In this document: positions 5,181 to 57,351 of the stretch, in pieces
Position numbering within the stretch: the first letter of the stretch is position 1
Layout: each line of letters begins with the position of its first letter
Assembly (NCBI GenBank): GCA_964016885.1
Contig: OZ024746.1
Span: 80,042,001 to 80,106,000 of the forward strand
Reading direction: 5' to 3'
Length of the DNA stretch: 64,000 nucleotides
Origin: Eledone cirrhosa
Taxonomy: Eukaryota
The notes under the pieces: generated by a model
The model's database searches: none
What the model saw: only the letters and a program-made list of their open reading frames with translations
What the model was told of the DNA's origin: nothing
Program-made: the position numbers and the translations under genes

Positions 5181-5783
5181 TGGCTGCCAACTCGTTTTCG
5201 AGTACGGCCACTACTTTATATCCATGTAGGAGAACCCCTACCGATGCGCTGAACGAGTGTGACTTTTTAGTCCAGCCAGCGACTTGAAAACTCTGGTACA
5301 AACACTACACTTGTGACAATTACTGACACATAGTGCTGGGCCCATGGTACCATGTGACGACAAGTGCAGAGAGATCTCCAGATATAAAGCAATGCCTGTG
5401 CCGTGAAGCTTTTATAGTGAGCAAAGGCACTGCACAAAGCCAGTCCCACTCTCTTAACCAAGATGATATTTACCAAAAAGAAGAACAAGTCAACATCATT
5501 GGATACCATCAGGGTTGCAGGTGTTATATCAGAGTTTTCCTTCTCCTAGAATTCTGCCTTGACAAAGGCTAAGGGGTCATCTCTCCCGGTGATTTTGGAT
5601 GGCCATTGACTCTTAAGAGCTCCTTTGCCCTTTGACAGGTTTTGTTTTTAGTCCTGCAGGATGTCCAAAGTCACCCTCCTCACCAAGAAACCTTGGTGGG
5701 GTTGCCAGTTTAGTCGCCAACGACCCGACCATGGGACAGGTTGTACTGGGATACATGTTACCAGTAGCACCAACTGGTGACCT

Positions 5784-6305: not shown

Positions 6306-7515
<1,210 letters not shown>

Positions 7516-8737: not shown

Positions 8738-11700
8738 ATATTTTTTTATTTGCCACAAGGGCGCACAAGAAAAGAGGACAATACAAAGACATGCCGGGGA
8801 TTTTACATACAGTCGTGTAAAAAATATAAAAACAAACCATTACAACAATCGAAATCCCCAATAGGGGGGAAGCACCAGAAATGGGTTGTTTAATACCCCG
8901 TCGATAGAACAACCCTCAACTTCAGGAGCGTGTTGTGCAAGTGCTCCTTTATTCCTTTTGCTCTCTTCTTCAACCTACAGGCTTATAAACAGAGAAGGCC
9001 CAATCACTCGGGCCATTTTCGCTTCATTCACCCACCTTTATTTACTGTAAATTTACTGTGGTGCAGTGCCTCTCTCGCCACTCTGATTCTCCTTCTAAAG
9101 TGATACTTAAAGAAGAGAATCAATTGTTGTCAAGAGAGAAAGGCATCTGTCCTCAGTCCTCTCAATCTCGTCCACTATATAACTTCTTTCACCATAGCCA
9201 CCATACAGAGGAAAACCGCCTCTCTTTCGTTTTTGAAAGAGGCTGGCGGTTTGATCCTTACTATGGACTCGGCAGTCAACTGGATTTGTCCCATACGCGA
9301 CAGCAGTTGTTCTGCATAGTTCCACAGGTCGGTTACGCTCGGGCAGTGTACAATTGCGTGGAGGACTGTTTCAATGTCCATGGAAGTTATCCATAGGTCC
9401 CGGGCGGAAATTCCTACCAAACAGACTGGTGAGCTCATCGTCGTCGACGCCTAGAGTCTCCCAGAGCACGTCGTCGCCCTTGTAAAGTACAATCCCTCTA
9501 TAGAATGTCGAAGTGGAGTCTCCACTGATTGCTGTACCCGCTTGCCAGAGGACTGTGAGCGCCTGAGCGCATTCAATGGACGTCAGCGAGACGAGCTGTG
9601 AGAAAGCCTGTCTCACAAACGGTGCCTACACCGGTTGGGGGTCGGTGAGGAATACCTGGAGATGCTGCAACCTCAGCGCATGTTTGCGCATCATCAGCCA
9701 CGGCATTCCCAGCCCTCCGTTGGAAGGGTGCTGACAGCAGACGGATCTCCTCAGCAGTGGAGCCTGCTTCTTCCACACAAACTGGAAGAGCATGCATTCC
9801 ATCTTGGCGAGGTGTTCACGGGAACAAGGCACGACAGTTAAGCGGTTGTAGATGACGGACGCTATGAAAGTGTTCGCCACCTTCGCTCGACCTTTCAATG
9901 TCAGTTTGTCCGGGTTTAGTTTTGCTCCCGTTAGCGTTTCGTATTCTTTCAGTAAGTTGCCGATCACCCCGATTTCCGAGGTGCTCGACACCATTACCGT
10001 CACGTCGTCGACATAAGCCGACTCCGCTTTGCGCAGTCCCAGTTCTAGAGGGATGCCCTGCAACATCTCCGATTTCCGAAATAGTGGCTCTAGAATCAAT
10101 ACATACAGAATGGAGGAGAGAGGGCACCCCTGTCGAATGGAACGCGTGATTGCTAACGGCTCCGATAGGTAGCCGTTCACCTTGCCCCTCGAGCAGATGC
10201 TGGTGTGGATCGCCTCGATCCAGCCTCTGAAAACGGGACCGAAACCGGCCGCCTTGAGAACCGCTTCCAAGTATCGATGGTCGACCCTATCGAATGCCTT
10301 AAACTGATCCAAATTGAACAGAGCCCGACCGAAGCCGGGTTTACTACCCACCATCTCTATGATGTATCGCATGAGGTGGAGGCTGTCGTGTATGGACCTG
10401 GTCGGGATTGCACACGTTTGCGCTTTCCCTACCAGGTTCTCGATCACAACCGCCAACCTCGTCGCAGGCACCTTGGCCAAAATCTTTAACTCTGTGTTGA
10501 GCAGAGTTATGGGCCTGAAGTTATTTATTTCGTCCCCTTTGTTCTCGTCTTTCCTGATCAGCGTTACTACGCCCTTGCCTCCCGTTCTGCTGCCAATTGC
10601 AGTAGACGGCTTCGAGGACGCCAGAGAACAAGTCCGGCATGCCTATGTAAAACTCATAGGGTAGACCATCTAGACCGGGTGACTTGCGTTTCTCGAAGCG
10701 GCCCAGAGCGTCCCGTATCTCAGTGTCCGTGATCAGTCTTTCGCAGAACTCGGCGTCCGTGTTCGAGAGACGCGGCAGGCCGTTGAGGTATGAACTAAAG
10801 TCCATTGCCCCATTCGCTTCACCGTCCTTCTGCTCAAACAGTCGCGCAAAGTGCTGCTAAAAGACCGCGCACATTTGCTTGGGGTCAAGTAGCACGCGTC
10901 CGTTTTGGTCTTTCAAAGACCGAATTGTGGACTTCTTGCCACTTTTCGCCTCCGCCACTCGGGCCCAGTTGACAGCTTTCGCTCCTTCGTTTCCAGAGCA
11001 CGTGTTTTGCTTCTGACCACGCAGCCCTCGTGTTTCGCATCGAAGAACTGGTCCAGTGCCGTTCTCGACGCTAACACTCTAGCCGTGTTGCCACTTCTAA
11101 GTGCCTCCTCTACCTTGGCTACTAGTTCTCTTTCTATTTTGTTTTTCTCTAAGGCTAACTCTCTGCTAAACCCTATCGATTCTATTCTAATTGCTTTCTT
11201 GGGAGATTACCATCATTTATTGTTGACGATGGCTCCCGTTAACTGTTGCTTGACTAGTCTACTTATCCGTTCAGTTCACTGTAAACTTTACGTGCCGGCA
11301 ACGACACGTTCAGCTTCCAGTATCCGAGTCCTTGTCTATGTATTCTATCACGGTTGACTAAGCAGACGACTAATTTGTGATCTGAATAGGCAACCATGTG
11401 CATTCGTGGACAGCTTAACATCTCCTTGTCCTTTCTCTAATGAAGAACCTATCTAAATACGATCTAGATGTCCCACTGCGGTTTGCCCACGTCCACTGTG
11501 GTGTAGTCGGAAAATCCAGTCGATACCTATCGGCCAGTTGGTATTGGCCGATTAAAGTTTTGAGGCTGTTGCACCCCCTCTACTGGGACATGCTCCCACA
11601 TAGTGCCATCGTACATCTAGGATACCATTCTAGTCCCCCACTAAAAGTAAGGAGCGAGACGTTCCCAGAAAAGTCTCGAGACGCTTAAAGAAGTCTGGCC

Positions 11701-12140
11701 GGGATTGCGATTGCCCGGTCGGGGCATAAACGGCCACCAGTCTGCAGGCTCCACCTCCAATACTGTTCACGTCTAGGACTACCAGTCTACCCTCTGGGTC
11801 CAAGTGTACTAGCTGTACTTCGACGTCCAGGTTCTTTCGAAACATGACAGCCACTCCCCCTCCACCTCCTGGCTGACAGAGAGATGCGTAAATCTCAAAG
11901 TCGTCGAAGATGGGGGTTAGTTGCTGCTTGTTGTTGATCTTATGGCTATCACATCCATACCGTGTGACCTAAGGTCGTTTAAAAGTTGGCCCTGTTTCCA
12001 GGGCATCCCTAGGCCACGCACATTCACGCTTCCAACTCGTAAACTAGCCATGTTGATGAAGAAGAGTTGGAGAAAAAGAACGAAAGGTGCACTTACCTTT
12101 TCGTTTCCTGGAGATCGGGTTGTTCAATCTCCATTCGGTT
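8738..12140 (-). mobile_element. 5'-truncated Tx1-clade non-LTR retrotransposon (copy A)
   Basis: ORF2 remnants plus a 3' UTR ending CCTTGTGGCAAATAAAAAAA directly into (ATCT)n. Paralogous to 27269-32700. Confidence 0.9.
8975..12051 (-). pseudogene. Disrupted ORF2 (APE endonuclease + reverse transcriptase) of Tx1-like LINE
   Basis: MASLRVGSVNVRGLG N-terminus; LVAVYAPTG; GKSPGLDG-like; DQFKAFDRVDH; SIRQGCPLS; AYVDD. Frameshifts and internal deletions. Confidence 0.9.
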
Positions 12141-12795: not shown

Positions 12796-12843
<48 letters not shown>

Positions 12844-12937
12844 GTGGAACACTGGAAGGTAATATCCGTAGTGGTAGAGCACTCAGTCCACGGGACGAGT
12901 TAGGTAGAAGTGGTTACACAACAGTTAGTTCACCATA

Positions 12938-12977
12938 CCGAGAACAATGGTTTCACCTTAGCGGATCCTCAGCTCGG
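12938..12977 (-). ncRNA. Minimal type I hammerhead ribozyme (PLE pLTR)
   Basis: CCGAG-CTGAGGA-tCCgctaaGGt-GAAAC-catt-GTT-CTCGG on the minus strand. Confidence 0.75.
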
Positions 12978-13149
12978 AATGGGCAGGGTTATAGGAACAG
13001 GAAGGACAGCCGTACGAACGCGCATGCGCAGAAATCCGGTCACTTCACACAGGCAATACTAGACTGCGTGCGAGAGGTGTAAAGGAGATAACTGCGAAAG
13101 TCCGAGAAGTTTTTAGGTTGAAAATAAAATTACAAAGAATCAGTCCGGA

Positions 13150-13658
13150 GCCTTGTAGTTATGCAATAGGTGTTTGGCGACGTGTGGACAACGTGTGAAA
13201 AATTAATTTCTCGTGTCTATTGCGTAATCTCTTTAGAATAGTTATTCGTTCGTCAATACGTAAGCCACACGTCGGATTTCCCCTTGCGTATGGCTTGGAC
13301 TTAGTGATGGCTTTCCATTGAATGGAATCTATACGTGAGTCCTTGAGGGACCATACGTGGCTCCCGAGTTTCGTGGATGAACGTCTGTCCGGGTACCTGA
13401 AGGTAGACTGGTGGTTAGGAAACGTTCCTTAAATCGGCCCTCCGCCATGCCCACATAGGATTTGACCTCCTGTGGTTCGTTTGGTCGGTTGGAAGTGACC
13501 ACAGCTTCATAAATTACAGCTGGTGTGTTGCATTGCTGTTGAAGGGGGCAAGCTTCAGGCTTACGGCAAGAGCACCCTGGTGGGGTGTTGCTCCTAGGGC
13601 TGCTGGTGATGTGGGCCTTCATGTTCTTAGCGCAGGAGTATCCTAGTTTAACCGACAC
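13150..13658 (-). pseudogene. GIY-YIG endonuclease C-terminal region of a Penelope-like (Neptune-type) element
   Basis: KLGYSC..NMK, CSCRKPEACPLQQQC, VIYEAVV...SYVGMAEGRFKERF. The mirrored arm reads WKAISKSKPYA..TCGL..ERKTIL..LNTR..CPH..KHLL. Confidence 0.85.
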
Positions 13659-14030
13659 AAAGTTAAACTAGGATACTCTTGGAAAGCCATCAGTAAGTCG
13701 AAGCCATACGCAAGGGGATATCCGACGTGTGGCTTATCTATTGACGAACGAAAAACTATTCTAAAGAGATTACGCAATAGTGATTGCCTAAACACGAGAA
13801 ATTAATTTTTCACACGTTGTCCACACGTCGCCAAACACCTATTGCATAACTACATGGCTCCGGACTGATTCTTTGTAATTTTATTTTCAACCTAAAAACT
13901 TTTCGGACTTTCGCAGTTACCTCCCTTACACCTCTCGCACGCAGTCTAGTATTGCCTGTGAGAAGTGACCGGGTTTCTGCGCATGCGCGCTCGTACGGTT
14001 GTCCTTCCTGTTCCTATAACCATGCCCATT

Positions 14031-14070
14031 CCGAGCTGAGGATCCGCTAAGGTGAAACAATTGTTCTCGG
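14031..14070 (+). ncRNA. Minimal type I hammerhead ribozyme (inverted pLTR copy)
   Basis: CCGAG-CTGAGGA-tCCgctaaGGt-GAAAC-aatt-GTT-CTCGG with palindromic helix III ACAATTGT. Confidence 0.8.
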
Positions 14071-15824
14071 TATGGTGAACTAACTGTTGTGTAACCACTT
14101 CTATATATATTGTCATATATTGTTATATATTTAGGGATAGTAATGTTGACAATATTGCCAATAAAAAGAAACACGTACCATATCATTTTCACTTTATCTT
14201 TATCTTTATCTTTATCTTTATCTTTATGCTCGTTATTCATTTGTTTCTCAAAGTTCTTTCGTCACACATTTTGTGGCCTCCTCTTTACCCACCCCCATCT
14301 CTCTCTACCCTCCTTCTCCCTACCTCTCACTCTTTCTCTTTTTCTCTCTCTCTCTTTTCTTATGTTCATGTAATTACATACTCTTACCATCGCCTTTCCA
14401 TCTGGACCGACGTTTTGTATGAAATATACAACAGTTTTAACATAAAATAAGAACACCACAGTGACCAAGGAAACTTCAGCTTGGCCGGTTGACCTGCTAA
14501 AAATAGCTACCTAAAGGGTATATTGGTAATGTAGTTCCAGATAAATCTGTGTCGGAAAACTTACACGATTGGAACAAGATCAGATCTACCTTGTGTCTGT
14601 CACAAATTTATCATTAATATACATCATATTTCACTCTATAAAACCGTCTATTAAGACGACTGGTTTTGTCTTACACCTTTATATCGCCTATTTAAATCCA
14701 GATTTCCATCGATTAATGAGTTTAAAATCAAACAAAATGTCAACATCCATAATAAATTCTGTCTATGCCATATGATGTGTATCATCAACAAGAGAAGGAA
14801 AAAAATGGAAAAGAAAGAAAACACAGAAAAAAATCCATCTCGAGTAAAATAAATATGGCAGCGACATCAGTTCCAGAGGCAAAAGAATTACATACAATTG
14901 AATGGTCACTTCCTTTTCCTATTGTTTGCCGCTTCTTCTCTTTTGTAAATTGTATTTTTGTGGTCTCATGGCAAAAGAGAAAAAAAAATCATAACATATA
15001 AAGAAAAAAATTCTCTATTATTATTTATTTCCAAGTGTCACTTGAAGAGGGAGGAACGGGAAGTGAAGGAAGAGAAGTGAGAAAGGAGAGTGAAGACCGA
15101 GGAGACAAAAAGTAAAGTGGCATGATTGCCGTTGATTCAATTGTCACAACTACAGCGCAAAAGTGAACATATTTATTTGCAAAGAGTTGAGGAGCTGTCT
15201 GGACTTTGGCAGTCTCCCATTTTCTTTATATTCTATTGCGTTTATTTATATATTTATATGAGTATAAATTGCATTTCTTTATTATTTTATTTTTATTATT
15301 TGTATTAGGAACTTTTTCGTTGCAAATTAGAAGAAATTACATTTTCCTTATAGTTTTATTTATTTATCTATCTGTTTATTTTTTCCTCTAGTATGAACGA
15401 GTTGCTTCCAGCTCCGTGTTATATGAATGATTATCAAAAACGAGGCCATAGTAGTAGAACCGTTAGGCTGTTGCCACGTTATATTTGATTGATATGGTAG
15501 AAATAACCTTACGGTATTTAGATACGTCTTCTTAACGTTCTGGGTTCAAATCATGCTGGAGGTCAATCAAACATTTCCTTTCACCCTCTTGGGCTCGACA
15601 AAATAAATACCAGTCAACTAAGGGGTCGATTTAATCGACTATTTCAATTTCCACAAGGCATTGTGCTAAATATGGTAAACGCCATTATTAATCATCAATA
15701 GTAATTTTATTACATGTCATTATTGCACAATCGAATGCAGATCTGGCTAACCTTCTCTATACTGGCTAGTAATCTGCTTAACTAACCATCTTTCTCTCCT
15801 CTTGATTAGTTTATTCGCTTTTCA

Positions 15825-16923: not shown

Positions 16924-17466
16924 CAAAGGTATATATTGAGTTAGAAACTCAAAATAGTCTCTTACAATAAAATAGCTCTAGGAAAGAGATTTTTCCGAGC
17001 CGTATATCATAATTGAATATAAAAGAGAGATAAACACAAACATATACATATATGTGTTCAAATCGTAAGGGGCCGGGTTCGCTAAGGTGAAAAAAATACT
17101 AACTATGGACAATAGGGTTTGCCAGACTCAATTTAAGAATAAATCAAGAAAATAAATACAAACCGGAATTGTGGTAACTACCAATCACCCAGACAGCGTT
17201 TGGCTATGCTGTTTCGCAAATTAATTGTGAAAAGTATTACCAATTCTTGCTCGTGAGTGGGTGAAAATTAGTTATCTCCTCACTTCTAAGAATATCAAAC
17301 AACTGAATAGTGTGCGTAAATATAATAACGCACATGGTATCAGAATTTAGCGTGTCTCACAAACTCGCACCACTAAAAATAGCAGCCAAGTTTCCGGTCC
17401 CTTACGATTTGAACACATATATGTATATGCCTGTGTTTATCTCTCTTTTATATTCAATTATGATAT
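16924..17466 (-). mobile_element. Element with 73-bp inverted arms and an internal degenerate hammerhead (17185-17264)
   Basis: Arms 17003-17075 / 17395-17466. Minus strand: TCACCCA-CTCACGA-GCAA..TTGC-GAAACAGC..GCTGTC-TGGGTGA (G5>C). Confidence 0.75.
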
Positions 17467-26098: not shown

Positions 26099-26167
26099 AT
26101 TTTATCTGATGAAAACACAAATATTATTGCATGATGATGTTTGTTTTTGAAATGCGCATAATAAAAT
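26099..26167 (+). ncRNA. Type I hammerhead ribozyme (AUA cleavage family)
   Basis: ATTTTAT-CTGATGA-AAAcACAAATATT..GATGTTTGTtTTT-GAAAT-gcgc-ATA-ATAAAAT. Helix I 7 bp, palindromic helix III ATGCGCAT. Confidence 0.75.
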
Positions 26168-28963: not shown

Positions 28964-29027
28964 ACCATCCTTCCTCTACGAGAAGTAAGGTAAGTGGTCT
29001 TCCCCATCTTTTCCACTCCATTTCAAC

Positions 29028-32000
29028 ATGACCTCACTCAGAATAGGCAGCATAAATGCGCGTGGCTTGGGGTCATCATGGAAGCAGGGCCACCTGCTCA
29101 ACGACCTCAGGTCACTAAACATAGATGTAGTGGCCATCAGCGAGACCAGAAATCCCGAAGCTCGGGCCTTCGCACCGATCTTCGGCGGCTACGATGTGTA
29201 CGCATCTCCCAGCCGTCCTGGATCGGGGGGAGGAGTTGCTGTGCTTTTTTGGAGAGGTTTGGATCTCGCCATACGTGCCATCTTCCTGGACCCAGAAGGT
29301 GAGTTGGTGGTGCTGGACGTGACCAGCGGAGACGGGCAAGCTTTCAGGCTAGTGGCCGTCTATTCCCCGACAGGATCAGGGCGGCCTGATTTCTTCCGGT
29401 GTCTGGAGACCTTTCTTGGAACGTCCCGCTCTTTAGTGTTAGTGGGCGCTGGAACGGGATCTTAGATGCACGCTGGGACTGTGTGGGATTAGCGGATAGG
29501 GGAGGAGGGTGCAAGAGCCTCACCAACCTGCTCAGGCGTTTTGAACTGTCTGACAGGTACCGATTGGATTTCCCGAATGTGCCAATGTGAACTTGGACAA
29601 ATCGCATAGGGTCATCCAGATCATATCTAGATAGAGTATTTTGTAGGGAAATAGATAGGTCTAGCATAGGCTGTCCACAATTCAAGATAGTCAGCTACAC
29701 GGACCACAAATTCGTGATCTGTGTGCTTGAATTAGATGGGCTTCAGAGACGAGGACCCGGCTACTGGAAGCTAAACGCGTCCTTACCAGCGCGCAAGGCC
29801 TACAGAGACCGGATTAGCGAACTAGTTAAGCGGGCGTTGACGGGGGCCATCGTCAACAACAAGTGGTGGTTTGCTCTGAAAAGAGTGATTAGAATAGAGT
29901 CCATTAGGTTTAGTAAGGCTTTAGCAATAGAGAAAAGTAGAGCAGAGGGAGAACTAGTTAGAAAATTAGACGAAGCGTTTAGCAAAGGCATCGCGACCGA
30001 CGTACTTGCGGCGAAATTGGTCCTTGACCAATTCTTCAATGCAAAGCACGAAGGCTGCGTTGTCAGAGCTAGGGTGCGTGCTCTCAGACACGAGGGGACG
30101 AAAGCCGTTCAATGGGCCCGAGTGGCGGAGGCGCGTCGTGGCAACAAAGCCACGATCCCGTCTTTGGTGGACCACGACGGGCGTATGCTACTCGATCCCG
30201 GGCAAATGTGTGAAGCTTCTCAGCGACACTTCGCACAGCTGTTCGGGGGAAGCGGCGGGCCGGATCGAGGGATGGACTTTAGTGTCTACCTCGACGGACT
30301 GCCGCGGATCTCGGCCACTGAGGCGGAGTGTTGCGAAAAGCCAATAACAGCTGCTGAAGTACGGGAAGCAATGACTGGCTGCACAAGGGGTAAATCGCCT
30401 GGTTTGGATGGTCTGCCCTATGAACTTTACGTACAGATGCCAGACTTGTTCGGAGGCCTCTTGGCGGACGTCTACTGCAACTGGCAACAGAACGGGAGAA
30501 TTCCCAGCTCTGTGAGCCGAGGAGCTGTGGCGCTGCTGAGAAAGGATCCGAACAAGGGGGATAACATAGATAATTTCAGGCCCATAACTCTGCTAAACAA
30601 AGAGTTCAAGATTTTGGCCAAGGTGCTAGCAAAGGGGTTGGCGCTTGTCGTTGGTGGTCTGGTGGGAGAGGCGCAGACATGCGCCATTCCCGACAGATCC
30701 ATCCACGACAACCTCCACCTCATGCGATACATCGTAGAGAGGGTAGCTAGGGAACCTGGAACGGGTGGGTCCTTGATCAATTTAGATCAGTCGAAAGCTT
30801 TCGATAGGGTCGACCATCGTTACCTAGCGGCAGTCCTGAGGGCGGTTGGCTTTGGGCCTGTCTTCAGAGGCTGGATCGCTGCCATGCACAGCGACATCTG
30901 CTCTGTGGTGAGAGTGAACGGTCACCTTTCGGAACCGTTCAACATCATGCGCTCGGTCCGCCAAGGATGTCCCCTCTCGTCCCTCTTGTACGTATTGACT
31001 CTCGAGCCATTACTGCACAAACTGGAGACGTTGAGGGGGATCCCGCGCGAACTAGGATGCGGAAGATCCGTGTCAGCATATGCGGACGATGTCACCGTAG
31101 TGGTGTCGAACGCCAAACACATCGAGACGATCGGCACTACACTAAGAGAATACGAAGCGGTGACAGGAGCAATGATCAACCAGGAAAAGTCAGTGGGCCT
31201 GCAGCTCGGCACCTGGAGAAGCAGGTCCATACCGTTCAACAGCGTCGTCGGGCGCTGGACGGACGGACCGGTTAAATTTCTAGGGCTCTGGTTCGGTCCG
31301 GACCTCCAGACGGACAAAAACTAGGACGAGGTGACGAACAGGGTGGCTTCTCTCACCCAGAAATGGGCGGAGAGGAAGCTATCCCTGAAAGGTCGAGCGG
31401 AGGTGGCTAACGCGTACATGGCGTCCGTCATCTACTACCGCCTAACCGTCGTACCTTGTCCTAAGCCCCTCCTGACTGCGCTGGAGCGTTTGCTCTCTCG
31501 CTTTTTGTAGAAGGGACGCGCTCCGATGGTCAGGCGGTCCATCTGCTGTCAACACCCGCTACGTGGAGGGCTGGGCATGCTGTGGCTTATGATGCACAGA
31601 CACGCGCTCAGGCTACGACATCTCCACCTCTTCTTCGACAGTGATCAGGTGTGGTCGCCGTTTGCTAGACGCGTCTTTCCCCAGCTCGTCTCCTTGACGG
31701 AGCTGCAGTCCTGGGTCAAGCGAAGACTGAGAGGGAGCGCTTGGAGACTGGAATGCCTTCAGGCGCTCACAACCCTCGACCAATCGGACAATGTGATCGG
31801 TGGAAACTCCACCTTGGTGTTCTATAGAGGATTAGTGGAGGGGAAGAGCGACGACGTACTTGGGGAAACCCTAGACGTCGACGAAAATCAACTAGCCAAT
31901 CTCTTCGGAAGAACTTTCGGGACGGGGCCTATGGACAACTTCCAGAAAACCCTGGCCTGGCAGTACTACCGAGGAGCTTTGCCAGTTCGGGATAAACTCT

Positions 32001-32446
32001 ACAGGCATGGAGGTGCCGTCAGCCGGGCATGTCCGAGATGCGCGCAGGGTGACGAAACCGTCCTGCACGCACTCATCCAGTTTCCGAGCATTGCTGACTT
32101 GTGGGTTTATGTCGAACATCTGCTGGCGCGTGTAGGACGGATCCAGCTATCAGCTGAGTCCATCGTGAAGATTGCCCCGCCCTCTTCCTTTAGCCGGGAA
32201 GGGCAGGCAGTTTTTATCTGTCTGGTGGCCATGGCGAAAGAGATAGTATGGTGGACACGTTTGAAAGGGCTGAAGACGAGCACTTACCTCTTCGGTGATG
32301 CCCTGATTAACTTTTTCAAATTTTATTTGAAAAGGAAAATCAGGGTAGAGATGGAGGTGCTCTCGTCCCAGCATTTTGTTGGAAGATGGGTGAGAGAGAC
32401 AAGAATGGCCCGAGTGAATGGGCCTACTCTGAGTACGTGTCTGTAA
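29028..32446 (+). pseudogene. ORF2 APE endonuclease - reverse transcriptase - C-terminal zinc finger, with a frameshift and about 3 stop codons
   Basis: MTSLRIGSINARGL, AISET, SYLDR, YTDH, GKSPGLDG, FRPITLLN, DQSKAFDRV, QGCPLS, YADD, CPRC..ETVLHAL. Lesions near 29446, 29588, 31322 and 31508. Confidence 0.93.
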
Positions 32447-34755: not shown

Positions 34756-35040
34756 GATATTAAACAAATGGAAACTATATTTATAAAACCATATTTATTT
34801 CATTATACATATTTCGGGGATACCATATTAAAAATATGGCATGCCTTCGTCAGATAAAATACAATATATAAACAGTTTTATAAATAATTTTGACGAACCA
34901 TAAATATGAGCGACCATTATGTCGGAAGCTGGTTTGGTAGTATATCGTATATCTACTCCAAAAACTTGTCGAGTGCTTTATATCAGTTATAAAATATTTA
35001 CTTGTTGTAACCCAACAATTTTAAATAAAACTTTTGCATA
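34755..35040 (-). mobile_element. (TA)n-embedded hammerhead element (family shared with 43957-44290)
   Basis: CGATATTAA(A)CAAATGGAAACTATATTTATAAAACC...TATATCAGTTATAAAA is shared by both copies. Confidence 0.75.
34797..34860 (-). ncRNA. Type I hammerhead ribozyme (AUA family)
   Basis: ATTTTAT-CTGACGA-aGGcATGCCATAT..ATATGGTATCCcc-GAAAT-atgt-ATA-ATGAAAT. Confidence 0.7.
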
Positions 35041-35332: not shown

Positions 35333-35509
35333 TAACGAAGGAAAAGTGGTAAGGAACCAGGTGGACCATAACGCACCAAAGTACTCAATACTTAGGGTAG
35401 TAGAGTGGGTAATAGGAACGAGTAAGACCCTGACGGCTGAGCTCAAGCCGTTTCGACGGCTATTAGCCGTCGAAACGGCTTGAGCTCAGCCGTCGGGGTC
35501 TTACTTGTT

Positions 35510-35512
<3 letters not shown>
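35333..35512 (-). mobile_element. Family F1 fold-back element
   Basis: Hairpin 35411-35513 centred on GACGGCTATTAGCCGTC. Helix III GAAACGGCT..AGCCGTC. Unpaired tail at 35333-35410. Confidence 0.8.
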
Positions 35513-35556
<44 letters not shown>

Positions 35557-38590: not shown

Positions 38591-38682
<92 letters not shown>

Positions 38683-38699
38683 TATAAATATATATATAT

Positions 38700-39075
38700 A
38701 TGAATGTATATACAGTGTATTTGGCAATACACTGTATGCTTAATTAAAAGCATTTTAAAGACCTTACGCTATTGTTTTAAAGTAGTGACTATGTCACTTA
38801 CTTCTTTTTTCAGCAAACAAAGGGAGATAAGCTGACAGATCTCTGTTTCGTACTGTTGGTACTCCTCAGAGCTTTGCTGAAAAAAGAAGTGAGTGACATA
38901 GTCACTACTTTATAACAATAGCGTGAGGTCTTCAAAATGCTTTTAATTAAGCATACAGTGTATTGCAAAATACACTGTATATACATTCATACATATATCG
39001 CTATTTCAGAGCACCAATTCTAATTTTGGGACCGAGACCTTTGGCGGTACTCAGTAATAGAGAAGACCCGCCTTA
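38700..39075. mobile_element. Fold-back element (arms 38700-38817 / 38873-38991) with a hammerhead in the loop
   Basis: About 118-bp inverted arms. The loop folds as a complete hammerhead. Confidence 0.85.
38829..38874 (-). ncRNA. Canonical compact type I hammerhead ribozyme (GUC site)
   Basis: AAGCT-CTGAGGA-GTAC-caaca-GTAC-GAAACAG-agat-CTGTC-AGCTT. All three helices are Watson-Crick paired. Confidence 0.9.
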
Positions 39076-39248
39076 CCTAAATACAAAGTAAAAACCTACT
39101 ACAGTCAGTAGGCATCTCTATCAAAACACACCCCCGTCCCACCACCTCCACCCCACCCACACCGCCCCTTTCAATGTAAAGTTATGTTGGTCCCACAACA
39201 TCCAGGCCGAAACAAATGAGATCGTGTAGGTGTCACGACAAAAAACAC

Positions 39249-39585
39249 ACAGTCCACGCTGTAAATGTGGCCGTGTAGGCAACACGGTAAAAACCTCCCA
39301 GCCCCACACTGTAAATGTGGTTGGTGTTAGGAAGGGCATCCAGCTGTAGAAAACCCGCTAGACAGTCCACGCTGTAATGTGGCCGTGTAGGCAACACGGT
39401 AAAAACCTCCCAGCCCCACACTGTAAATGTGGTTGGTGTTAGGAAGGGCATCCAACTGTAGAAAACCCGCCAGACAGTCCTATGCGAGCAAGACAACCAC
39501 TCTTGCCTCAAGTGGGAAAACCCCCGTCCAAACCCATGCAAGCGTGGAACACGGACGCTAAACCTGATGATGATGATGATGATGA

Positions 39586-39588
<3 letters not shown>
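39249..39588 (+). mobile_element. SINE/RTE-type 3' end with (GAT)n tail and an internal tandem duplication of about 112 bp
   Basis: ACAGTCCACGCTGTAA..GAAGGGCATCCA(G/A)CTGTAGAAAACCCGC occurs twice. Ends GGACGCTAAACCTGATGATGAT. Confidence 0.7.
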
Positions 39589-39623
<35 letters not shown>

Positions 39624-39626
<3 letters not shown>

Positions 39627-39761
39627 CCGGATCTAACTGCCGAAACGGCTAGAACTCAGCCGTCGGGGTCCTAGCTCTTTTCATATTAGCCACTTTACTC
39701 TAAGTATTGAGTACTCTGGCGCTTTATGGTCCACCTGGTATCTTACCACGCCCTCTTTGTT
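39624..39761 (+). mobile_element. Family F1 element
   Basis: GAAACGGCT..AGCCGTCGGGGTC, then TACTCTAAGTATTGAGTAC tail, in (TA)n. Confidence 0.75.
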
Positions 39762-44584: not shown

Positions 44585-45417
44585 GAGAAGGAAGATTCTA
44601 TATGACGATTCGCAGCTGCTTCCTTTCAAAATGATATTGGTTCAAGAATTAACTGAGACAGATCAAGCCACCACAGAGCTGTAGGTGGGCAAATTCTTGA
44701 ACTCCCACTGCAGCTGTTCTTCTGAGTACCGATGAGGCTCATCTCTATATCAATGGTGCCGTAAACAAGTAGAGTTTTCGCTACTGAGCTGAACATAATC
44801 CTCATGAACTCCACGAACAACCACTTCACTCTCCTCGCGTAACTGTTGGGTGTGCAGTTGCCGACATTGGCGTAATCGGCCTATACTTTTTTATGGTGGT
44901 GCAACAGTATCTGTAGCGGTACATTGAAATGTTGCAGAACTTTCTGCACCCCAAACTAGACGATTTAGATACAGGACGGGGCCACAGCTCAGCCAACACG
45001 AAGTTATCTCGGGGTGTTGAGGGAAATGTTTCCTGGTCGTTTGATCTCTTTAAGGGGAAATGTAGGGTGGCTGGCAATGTCAGCAGATTGAAGCCGTTGG
45101 GTCTTTTTCCTTTGGGGATAGCTAAAGGAGAAGGTTTTCCAACATCGTACTCGAACTCTTGATGATTTGAAGGAAGGATCAGAGAGGAAATCGATGCAAT
45201 TCCACCTGAGATGACCTGGAGAATCATCGAGAATATCCGAGAACTATTCCATCAACGTATCGCCAACGACAGCTGCCATTTGTCTGACATAAGTTTTTGA
45301 AAACATTGAAAGAAAGCTGTTTTCTGTACGTTTCAGAAATATAATCAGTTTTTTTCCAGAGAGTTGTTTCTTTTTCAAAATATCTTTTCAAAATGTAGAT
45401 CTTTATACCCCACCCTG
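44582..45417 (+). pseudogene. Decayed Tc1/mariner (about DD37D, maT-like) transposase with right TIR end
   Basis: Across frames: PFKMILVQEL, STDEAHLYINGAVNK, HNPHELHEQPLHSPRVTV, YIEMLQNFL, QDGATA, REMFPGRLISLRG, FFLWG, REEIDAIPPEM. Ends CACCCTG-TA at 45411-45419. Confidence 0.85.
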
Positions 45418-55261: not shown

Positions 55262-55628
55262 TGTTCTTCTGGTTTTATAATTTCACAAAGTTTTACCAAT
55301 AGAGAGAGAGTCGGTTTCTAACATAGACACAAGACTCTCTCATTGGAATTTACACATCAACTTTTTCCTAACTAGTTGTGTTCTTTCTGTTCCTGTGAAG
55401 CCTAGCTTCTCAAGATTTGTATTGAGGCAGTTACTAACATATCCCAGTGCCCCAATAATCACAGGCATAAATCTGAATGTGTAATCAGGGTAGAGTATCT
55501 GCAGATTTCTCATCAGTTCTGCATAAATATTCTCCTTTTCACTAATCTTTGATATTATATTGGCATCTGCTGGGCAGATAATTTCCACTACTGTGCATGT
55601 TTTCTTCTCCCTGTCCCATATCATAATA
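55262..55628 (-). mobile_element. 3' fragment of an R4/Dong-like non-LTR element (restriction-like endonuclease), inside (ATAC)n
   Basis: IMIWDREKKTCTVVEIICPADANIISKISEKENIYAEL...FMPVIIGALG is a PD-(D/E)xK REL pattern. (TATG)n on both flanks. Confidence 0.75.
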
Positions 55629-55875
55629 TGTATGTATGTATGTATGTACGTACGTATGTATGCATTCATGCTTGTATGTATGCATGTATGTATGTATATA
55701 CGTATGTATGTATGTATGTATATGTGCTTGTATATACGTATGTATGTATGTATGTATATATTTATATATTTATTATGTGAGTACGTATGTTTATGTGAAT
55801 GTATGTGTGTGTGCATCTGTGAATAGATGGATCGATGGGTGTATGTATGTATGCTTGTAAATATATATGTATATG

Positions 55876-55993
<118 letters not shown>

Positions 55994-57351
55994 CACGTAT
56001 GATTAAATGTATTTATGTGTGTACTTGTCCAATTCACACCACCCGATGGCACAAGATAGCTAGAGCTGACGAAGAAACATCTGCGCGTTCTTTCAACATG
56101 CAGTTAAAACCTGCAACTAAAAGCAGTTCAAACTCTTTCAAATTGAATCCTATTGTTTTTAAAGATAAAGTTGAGAATGTTGTGCTTGGTATATAAAATG
56201 ATGAGATATTGATAGCTGGTATAGATGAGCTATTGATAGCTGGTATGGATGAGATATTGATAGTATGGTTTGAACAATTTTAGTCAATGAAAGAGGATGT
56301 ACGCGTTCTTCCAGCCTGCTAGTAGCAGGTTAAACCCTTTCAAATTATTTTCTACCGACATTAACATAACCATAGTGGAGAGAGAATATAATAGTCTTAG
56401 ATATACAAAATGATGTGATGATCATAACTGAAATGTTTTCATCAGAGATCTGCTCGATCTATGATTAAACAACAAACCACCACAACACCACCAACAAGAA
56501 AAATTAATTTATATAAAAATTATAACAGTAATGAAGCTGAAGAATATTAAGTTATGATCGAACACATGATGCTTAGATTATAACGTCCAGATACTTAAGA
56601 ACACTTCTTATATTAATTCATTCATTCACATATTTTCTATTGTGTGTTGTGTAATGTAATGTGTGATTTACATTTTATTCGTTCGTTAGTTTCTTGTTAT
56701 ATCGTTTATACTTAGATGCCGACACTTATATATAAGAGATTGGAAGAAATTTGAGTTTCAACTACTTTCAAAACAGCGGAGAAATATTGAAAGAGTAAAA
56801 TGGAAGATATAGCAGAAGCTTGCCAGAAGGACATCAGTACTTTCTCAATGACACTTTGAAGGATTAAGTGATAAATGAAAATCATATACATCTTGCTTCC
56901 TCTTGAATCTTCAATGGTGAATAGCTTGGAGCCAAGAGTTGGAAACAAAAAGATGTCTTTATAGTGTTAGACATTAAGATCGGTGATAAAATCAAATAAT
57001 TATTTACTGCTAATATCTTCATTCTGATAATACTTATATATCTCTGGCTTCAATTTAACCCATTTTAATGCAAGATTTTCCTGTGTAGAAGAGTTATAGG
57101 TAGTAACCAGTTGTGAATGCTGCGGGTGCATGATGCTTTGAAATGGCTGACTCATTGACAATCGAAATTGGTTTCAACATTAATAACTACTAGCCAGTAG
57201 CCGTGGAAAGAGTTAACAACGTTAATTGGTAGGCAACTCAATAATCTAACAGAATAGGGCCTCCGAACAAAAGCATAAACATAAACAGATTTTCGCCAGT
57301 GAAGTGGAGCACTTCACTTAAATACTGATGCATCTCTCTCTCTCTGTGTGG

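Follow-up and report, generated by a model that had tools for sequence, protein, structure and literature searches.

The locus described here lies in a 64-kb stretch of Eledone cirrhosa DNA, hereafter the window, an animal sequence rich in microsatellites, with 172 rows of tandem repeats as well as LINE fragments. On its minus strand, the locus holds a type I hammerhead core of 46 nt (38874–38829), with a stem I of 5 bp and stems II and III of 4 bp each. Stem I (AAGCU/AGCUU) is formed by positions 38874–38870 with 38833–38829 and is followed by the CUGAGGA segment (38869–38863), by stem II (GUAC/GUAC; 38862–38859 with 38853–38850), which closes a CAACA loop, by the GAAA segment (38849–38846), and by stem III (ACAG/CUGU; 38846–38843 with 38838–38835), which closes an AGAU loop. 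All pairs in the three helices are Watson–Crick, and the elements that define type I hammerheads—CUGANGA, GAAA, and UH, ordered around three helices with stem I open—are all present. The cut is predicted to occur after the GUC triplet, between 38834 and 38833, with C17 at 38834 and G5 at 38867.

A strict hammerhead descriptor, requiring 5, 4, and 4 Watson–Crick pairs in the three stems, finds this core as its single match in the 64-kb window, against none in 200 block-wise dinucleotide shuffles, while a loose descriptor gives four matches in the window against 0.005 expected. Rfam yields no match for the hammerhead locus at the gathering score and no hammerhead match at E ≤ 10 over the 501 nt around it; the 16 sub-threshold matches obtained over the locus are of the hairpin and miRNA type, all of them far under the cut-off. 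The RF00163 (Hammerhead_1) model, applied to a stretch of 63 nt, aligns the core in register (model positions 5–41 of 45) with 14 bits versus a cut-off of 34. The first-pass annotation had reported a GUC hammerhead of 46 nt on the minus strand, with a complete core and three Watson–Crick helices; sequence and descriptor agree on this point, and 38829–38874 is a genuine type I hammerhead motif.

The hammerhead is located in the loop of a long hairpin, as that annotation had also recognized, between inverted arms at 38692–38817 and 38873–38998. These arms have 126 nt each, are 95% complementary (six mismatches), and stand 55 nt apart, and the whole hairpin folds at −193.8 kcal/mol (z −28). The long stem previously described is confirmed, although its length of 118 bp corresponds to the portion outside the TA run. 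The proposal that the flanking repeat would leave the ribozyme free holds for its site in the loop, but two bases (38873–38874) belong both to the arm and to stem I.

The two arms belong to two copies of the same sequence. The arm of copy 1 (38692–38817, sense on the minus strand) holds the pseudo-LTR sequence 3′ of the ribozyme, and its tail-less end falls in a TA run. Between this arm and stem I lies a linker (38818–38828, minus), in which UCUC (38827–38824) is the likely orphaned 3′ strand of an outer stem I. The arm of copy 2 (38873–38998, sense on the plus strand) holds the same pseudo-LTR sequence, 5′-truncated just 3′ of the ribozyme and head to head with copy 1. Only this second arm is followed by a tail of element sequence (38999–39027, plus), which is cut off by the neighboring repeat. 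Copy 1 comprises the ribozyme and an arm without a tail, and copy 2 comprises an arm and a tail without a ribozyme; because the ribozyme is found only in the former and the tail only in the latter, neither copy can be made by copying the other.

The tail-less end of copy 1 adjoins a (CA)n and then (TA)n microsatellite (38592–38699, no strand), the likely insertion target. On the right side, the flank has been replaced by an unrelated high-copy repeat (39029–39623, plus), itself 5′-truncated here and ending in (TGA)n(AT)n, and no target-site duplication can be read because this repeat removes the right flank. Neither a second copy of the arm or the ribozyme nor a continuation of the tail past 39027 is found elsewhere in the 64-kb window. 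The tail pattern has no match in genome_contigs and one in metagenomes, a chance match inside a phage-like coding region.

Two of the six arm mismatches give G–U pairs on either strand, with no strand bias, and the three that can be polarized by comparison with contigs are distributed over both arms. The mismatches give no indication that an RNA stem has been selected, and the arms are predicted to have drifted neutrally since insertion. Each arm also carries its own 12-bp hairpin (38710–38737 and 38953–38980), some 15–20 nt before the arm end, plus smaller palindromes; these 12-bp hairpins possibly belong to a structure bound by the RT. A splice-donor-like word (GTAAGT/GTGAGT) lies 25–30 nt after the ribozyme, at chance level.

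Other elements are present in the window. Two broken LINE copies (9381–12033 and 28989–32446) encode endonuclease and RT, are ~69% alike, and have opposite orientations. In the frame at 55340–56002 (minus), the 3′ part resembles what we take to be the restriction-like endonuclease end of an R2/R4-type retroelement, and the segment at 44629–45250 (plus) is, as judged by eye, presumably a broken DDE-transposase-like fragment. A C2H2 zinc-finger-like frame at 5241–5411 (minus) stays under the Pfam cut-off.

The hammerhead belongs to a family that is represented in public sequencing contigs. Four runs of 23 (X1, X4, X5, and X14) were compared with 38690–39240 at 80% likeness. X1 consists of contigs from the same species, possibly from the source sample and hence not independent, and X5 and X14 are two of the 16 runs from other organisms; the library type of X4 is unknown and the RNA nature of X14 is a guess, and neither bears on expression. 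In X1, 7,500 of 16.3 million contigs map to this stretch of 551 nt, which includes the second, unrelated repeat from 39029; the variant rows of this run comprise 97 contigs at 38757, 76 at 38813, and 51 at 38819. The summed depth, which is not to be equated with copy number, goes from 5–7 × 10⁵ (38937–39012) to 2.5 × 10⁵ (38766–38803), and then to 4.2 × 10⁴, 1.8 × 10⁴, and 2.6 × 10³ across 38823–38879. As far as contig depth tells, this drop of about two orders of magnitude toward and across the ribozyme is the shape of 5′ truncation, and the contigs point to a family that is interspersed, multi-copy, and 5′-truncated.

The contigs also hold information on the junctions. Seven of the nine listed contig joints are head-to-head junctions at other break points, with one contig each (38793>38947, 38799>39004, 38818>38968, 38842>39006, 38854>38960, 38854>39000, and 38866>39000). 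The contig with the junction 38842>39006 has 21 hammerhead-like letters and joins the tail at TCAGAGC, a word of 7 nt common to the 5′ end of the ribozyme (38866–38872) and the tail (39006–39012). The hammerhead is contiguous with the arm in the X1 contigs covering 38718–38841 and 38734–38854, and so lies within the pseudo-LTR. The tail (38999–39027) is covered continuously with the arm in contigs of X1, X4, and X5, coverage by X5 being limited to 42 nt at the arm end and tail; X14 covers only 39029–39114, which is the neighboring repeat. Past 39026, single contigs of X4 and X5 continue with letters that differ from those of the window, and contigs have loose ends before 39029 in all four runs.

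One X4 contig represents an unfolded copy, where the strand 5′ of the core extends stem I to six pairs and, after a bulge, an upstream GAGA complements UCUC at 38827–38824; the core of this contig is damaged. The window copy does not hold this outer strand because the inverted arm begins there (38873), and, judging from this one contig, the outer part of stem I appears to have been lost. At 38977/38713, the two arms carry a common base at odds with the majority of the family. A>G differences in X1 were attributed to variation within the family rather than to editing.

The scar at 38692–39027 has several sisters in the same stretch of DNA. The window contains 19 inverted repeats, six of which (3618, 26420, 50361, 50402, 58246, and 59735) were set aside as simple-repeat or SINE pairs. 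In the other 13, one arm ends at a simple repeat and the other continues into a tail, and the tails meet (TA)n after 57–95 nt in 10 of these 13 scars. A strict hammerhead 3′ half-core is found in 10 of the 13 scars versus 0.8 expected, a count in which the half-core scored for scar 12905 is not its true ribozyme (the real ones being at 12972 and 14036). This scar, the largest of them, belongs to another family with the same plan and extends over 12841–14103 (minus), with arms of 424 nt, hammerheads at 12972 (minus) and 14036 (plus), and a tail of 64 nt.

Placement in a loop is not unique to the window hammerhead, because half-cores also sit in the loop at 7086–7223 and 17005–17465. Loop ownership could be read for three plus three scars, the remaining ones being ambiguous or too short for this: the loop is part of the arm without a tail in 7097, 38699, and 41459, and of the arm with a tail in 12905, 17005, and 40658. 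The loop is therefore found in either arm, as expected if each copy is truncated independently. Only in the scar at 7086–7223 does the arm end in TC-like bases, and there it adjoins (TC)n; the arms of the other scars mostly terminate in TA-like bases next to (TA)n. This match between the arm end and the flanking tract is a hint that target and RNA anneal where priming first occurs. The segment at 39625–39760, with a (TA)n tract on either side, holds a hammerhead half-core of the 35412–35514 family and a very small fold-back. Additional cores resembling hammerheads, from several families, are found at 26106, 36095, 40706, and 4707 (plus) and at 34853, 44053, 41550, 51453, and 47577 (minus), some of which are unfolded single copies.

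The largest sister also provides coding evidence. On the minus strand, its region 12905–14103 encodes, in a broken frame, a linker rich in Cys followed by a domain resembling GIY-YIG. A phmmer search with this translation gives 601 relatives at E ≤ 0.001, and the four long relatives that were fetched hold, as judged by eye, RT motifs, then the same linker, and then the endonuclease. GIY-YIG is matched in two of the 18 relatives scanned, under the cut-off, and the Atlas points at 0.94 to a cluster in which 12% of the members carry GIY-YIG, with a second GIY-YIG cluster at 0.92. Pfam finds nothing in 79 short frames, that of the sister scar included, PHROGs find nothing in two frames, and a word-index protein search gives no match for the sister-scar product. 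The element is probably of the Neptune type, a label that rests on the Zn-finger-like linker of the sister scar together with its motifs. Such a linker is described for Neptune and Nematis (PMC8557442). As this sister scar holds both the Cys-linker and the GIY-YIG end, the architecture is tied to a Penelope-like ORF. No RT or endonuclease sequence was found linked to the 38829–38874 family itself, whose membership among the Penelope-like elements (PLEs) rests on its architecture and on the sister family.

Another shared feature is found in the tails. A stem of the form RCTC...GAGY opens 2–5 nt after the arm end in six of the 13 scars (12905, 17005, 35432, 41459, 43376, and 45515) versus 0.12 expected, with a motif defined post hoc on these same sequences and with scar families some of which may be related. 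The outer pair of this stem is A–T in three of them and G–C in three. In a seventh scar (36015), the stem lies across the arm end, and the tail at 38999–39027 holds a degenerate form of the hairpin. This RCTC...GAGY hairpin is a possible signal for the first RT start. A literature search over a collection with few subscription journals returned no publication about hammerheads of cephalopods or about a tail hairpin common to several scars. A recent octopus repeat annotation lists Penelope-like families, and the word hammerhead is absent from it (PMC13282606).

A Penelope-like origin of the hammerhead inverted repeat is held with great confidence, and 38692–39027 is very likely the dead-end insertion scar of a PLE in which two 5′-truncated pseudo-LTR copies (pLTRs) are joined head to head. 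This plan, with a head-to-head pLTR, a tail, and a hammerhead, is already published, and the window scar is an ordinary example of it. An inverted 5′-truncated copy, a tail of 30–40 bp, and a bias toward microsatellites have been described for PLEs (PMC8557442), as has a head-to-head inverted pLTR with an optional tail (PMC3846280), and single and opposite-strand hammerheads come from truncated PLEs (PMC4209133).

The route to the head-to-head scar is probably one through two cDNAs. The element endonuclease would have cut the (TA)n target on both strands, and reverse transcription would have been primed from each target end at two internal RNA sites one tail-length apart. Both cDNAs would have stopped early, one of them five bases past the core and the other just before the ribozyme, and their 3′ ends would then have been joined over a short microhomology. 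This joining of two cDNAs is a step that we infer. Two separately primed cDNAs are the simplest reading because neither copy is derivable from the other. According to this mechanism, the ribozyme would owe its place in the loop solely to the extra length of copy 1, about 55 nt. The placement of the hammerhead in the loop is thus most likely an accident of truncation rather than a special gene for a self-opening hairpin, and the functional design that the first-pass annotation had seen in this layout is disfavored, since independent 5′ truncation of two Penelope-like copies explains the layout and the loop placement recurs in the sisters.

The scar has clear similarities with EN+ PLEs (Penelope/Poseidon, Neptune, and Nematis; PMC8557442, PMC3846280), such as the head-to-head copies, the one-sided tail, the hammerhead in the repeat, and the strong 5′ truncation, with a likely (TA)n target in the window scar and a Cys-linker and GIY-YIG end encoded by the sister scar. 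However, the window copy holds no ORF, no target duplication is readable, and the tails of the sisters (57–95 nt) are longer than the published 30–40 nt. These points count against the PLE reading, as do the protein searches that were empty or under the cut-off and the fact that each alternative junction, as well as the native upstream strand, comes from a single contig, with a damaged core in the case of the upstream strand.

The lizard Poseidon element PAc, from Anolis, has been studied in vitro (PMC11167929). Both target strands are cleaved and extended, with two internal RT starts one tail apart, which explains the presence of one arm with a tail and one arm without it; the start sites lie some 100–170 nt downstream of the hammerhead, similar to the window scar. 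Ribozyme cleavage is not needed in the PAc protein assay. Unlike that of the window copy, the PAc hammerhead is minimal, overlaps the start of the ORF, and cleaves only with the protein (PMC11167929). Moreover, PAc priming is described there without target homology, whereas the window arms end in TA-like bases beside (TA)n, which is a further point against the PLE reading.

As for the ribozyme itself, canonical type I hammerheads (RF00163; Schistosoma Sm-alpha; non-LTR retrozymes, PMC7229834) have in common with the window copy the topology, the full core, G10.1–C11.1, the 4-bp stem II, the A-rich loop, and the GUC site. The window copy differs from them in its score (14 bits versus 34), in a longer stem III, in the apparent loss of the outer stem I, and in the absence of a tandem array. 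The qualification of this hammerhead as a textbook one suits its full core, but not its Rfam score or its apparently lost outer stem I. Like the window copy, the minimal hammerheads of animal PLEs lie in the pLTR, mostly as single truncated copies or opposite-strand pairs, and have a self-complementary stem III that permits a dimer (PMC4209133). Contrary to this minimal type, the 4-bp stem III of the window copy is stable and can close as a monomer, stem II is short, and there is no extra base after A9, before stem II, so that the canonical form of this hammerhead also counts against the PLE reading; its helix III is closer to fungal and protist PLE variants (PMC4209133). From its sequence, the window hammerhead would be of the canonical type, with a stable helix III, and resembles retrozyme or fungal PLE forms. 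Ten phage loci (L001–L010, IMG/VR), located just upstream of coding regions, share the GUAC stem II and the ACAG/CUGU stem III. A kinship with these loci was rejected, since the phage hammerheads are of type III and have unrelated flanks, and the likeness is probably due to convergence.

The predicted cleavage behavior is that of a weakened ribozyme. ViennaRNA gives an active fold of 0.7% for the bare core and of <0.1% for the construct 38815–38885 and for the whole hairpin, because the pairings CUCUG/CAGAG and CUGA/UCAG compete with it. Hammerhead folds are generally underrated by this program, as the controls show: four different type III ribozymes of phages that share stems II and III reach 3–14%. 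Contacts between helices I and II are needed for efficient cleavage (PMC4209133, PMC6155905), and they seem to be lost in the window copy. Stem III is nearly self-complementary, with a duplex at −12.2 versus a hairpin at −1.8 kcal/mol. Slow cleavage is predicted for the window hammerhead, chiefly when Mg2+ is high or when two molecules pair via stem III; the ribozyme is probably crippled, and some cleavage at high Mg2+ is quite possible.

Other explanations for the locus have been considered. Within the same element, the inverted arm could have been made by a single self-primed fold-back, according to a model proposed for head-to-head layouts with palindromic junctions (PMC3846280). The base off the family majority that both arms share, indicative of one template or subfamily, and an overlap of 2 nt at the junction would fit this model. 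However, a fold-back of copy 1 gives no tail, a fold-back of copy 2 gives no ribozyme in the orientation seen, and an additional template switch is required, while the loop is found in either arm among the sisters (three and three), all of which makes self-priming an unlikely origin of the scar. The locus could also be a solo piece of a non-LTR retrozyme—a tandem, non-autonomous element that makes circular RNA—instead of an ORF-bearing PLE. The canonical type I ribozyme, with its 4-bp stem II and an A-rich loop like that of the RF00163 consensus, belongs to a class of motifs found mostly in retrozymes (PMC7229834), which have been reported to derive from PLE pLTRs (bioRxiv 10.64898/2026.07.22.740005). 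Nevertheless, a tandem unit or second copy is absent from the window, none of the nine listed contig joints goes back head to tail, and a tail with head-to-head junctions is a mark of PLE insertion, so a retrozyme is quite improbable here.

A transcribed and selected hairpin, which would open its own loop to yield long dsRNA for small-RNA production or A-to-I editing, is very improbable. The core is intact, the hairpin is very stable, any read-through transcript would form a duplex of about 120 bp, and the ribozyme stems (4 bp of stem I, plus II and III) are compatible with the long stem for a penalty of ~5 kcal/mol. Against this, the stem shows no sign of selection (mismatches in both arms, no strand bias), the window junction is one among several, the active fold is predicted to be rare, and dsRNA would form without cleavage anyway. 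Finally, the capture of a hammerhead by a MITE or by a foldback DNA transposon that has long terminal inverted repeats would account for about 300 nt of non-coding sequence with long inverted arms, TA at the ends, and many copies, but this is hardly credible in view of the unequal arms (a tail on one side), the seven other junctions among contigs, the coverage that declines toward the center, and the unrelated families that show the same plan with hammerheads. Uniform copies with equal terminal inverted repeats are not encountered among the contigs, and this explanation is largely refuted.

Under the preferred reading, a PLE scar made of two truncated copies, the locus is of little importance as such, since it represents a described PLE product of which about a dozen lie in the 64-kb window, and it serves as a warning that ribozyme matches within hairpin loops of such genomes arise by accidents of truncation. 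A broader proposal, which is speculative and held tentatively, is that these scars may record PLE integration, in which a paired RT–endonuclease would prime two cDNAs from the two target ends, which would then be joined by microhomology. In unrelated Neptune-type families alike, the first priming site would be fixed by a short TA match to the target and by the conserved RCTC...GAGY hairpin 2–5 nt further on, and the family would count as an animal PLE whose complete hammerhead can act as a monomer and whose fold-backs might be able to give ribozyme-opened dsRNA. The value of the locus, a modest one, is mechanistic: from the series of junctions and from the tail hairpin common to several scars, predictions at the level of sequence can be drawn for the priming and joining of the cDNAs, and an intact member of this family would be one of the rare hammerheads of animal PLEs in which helix III is stable.
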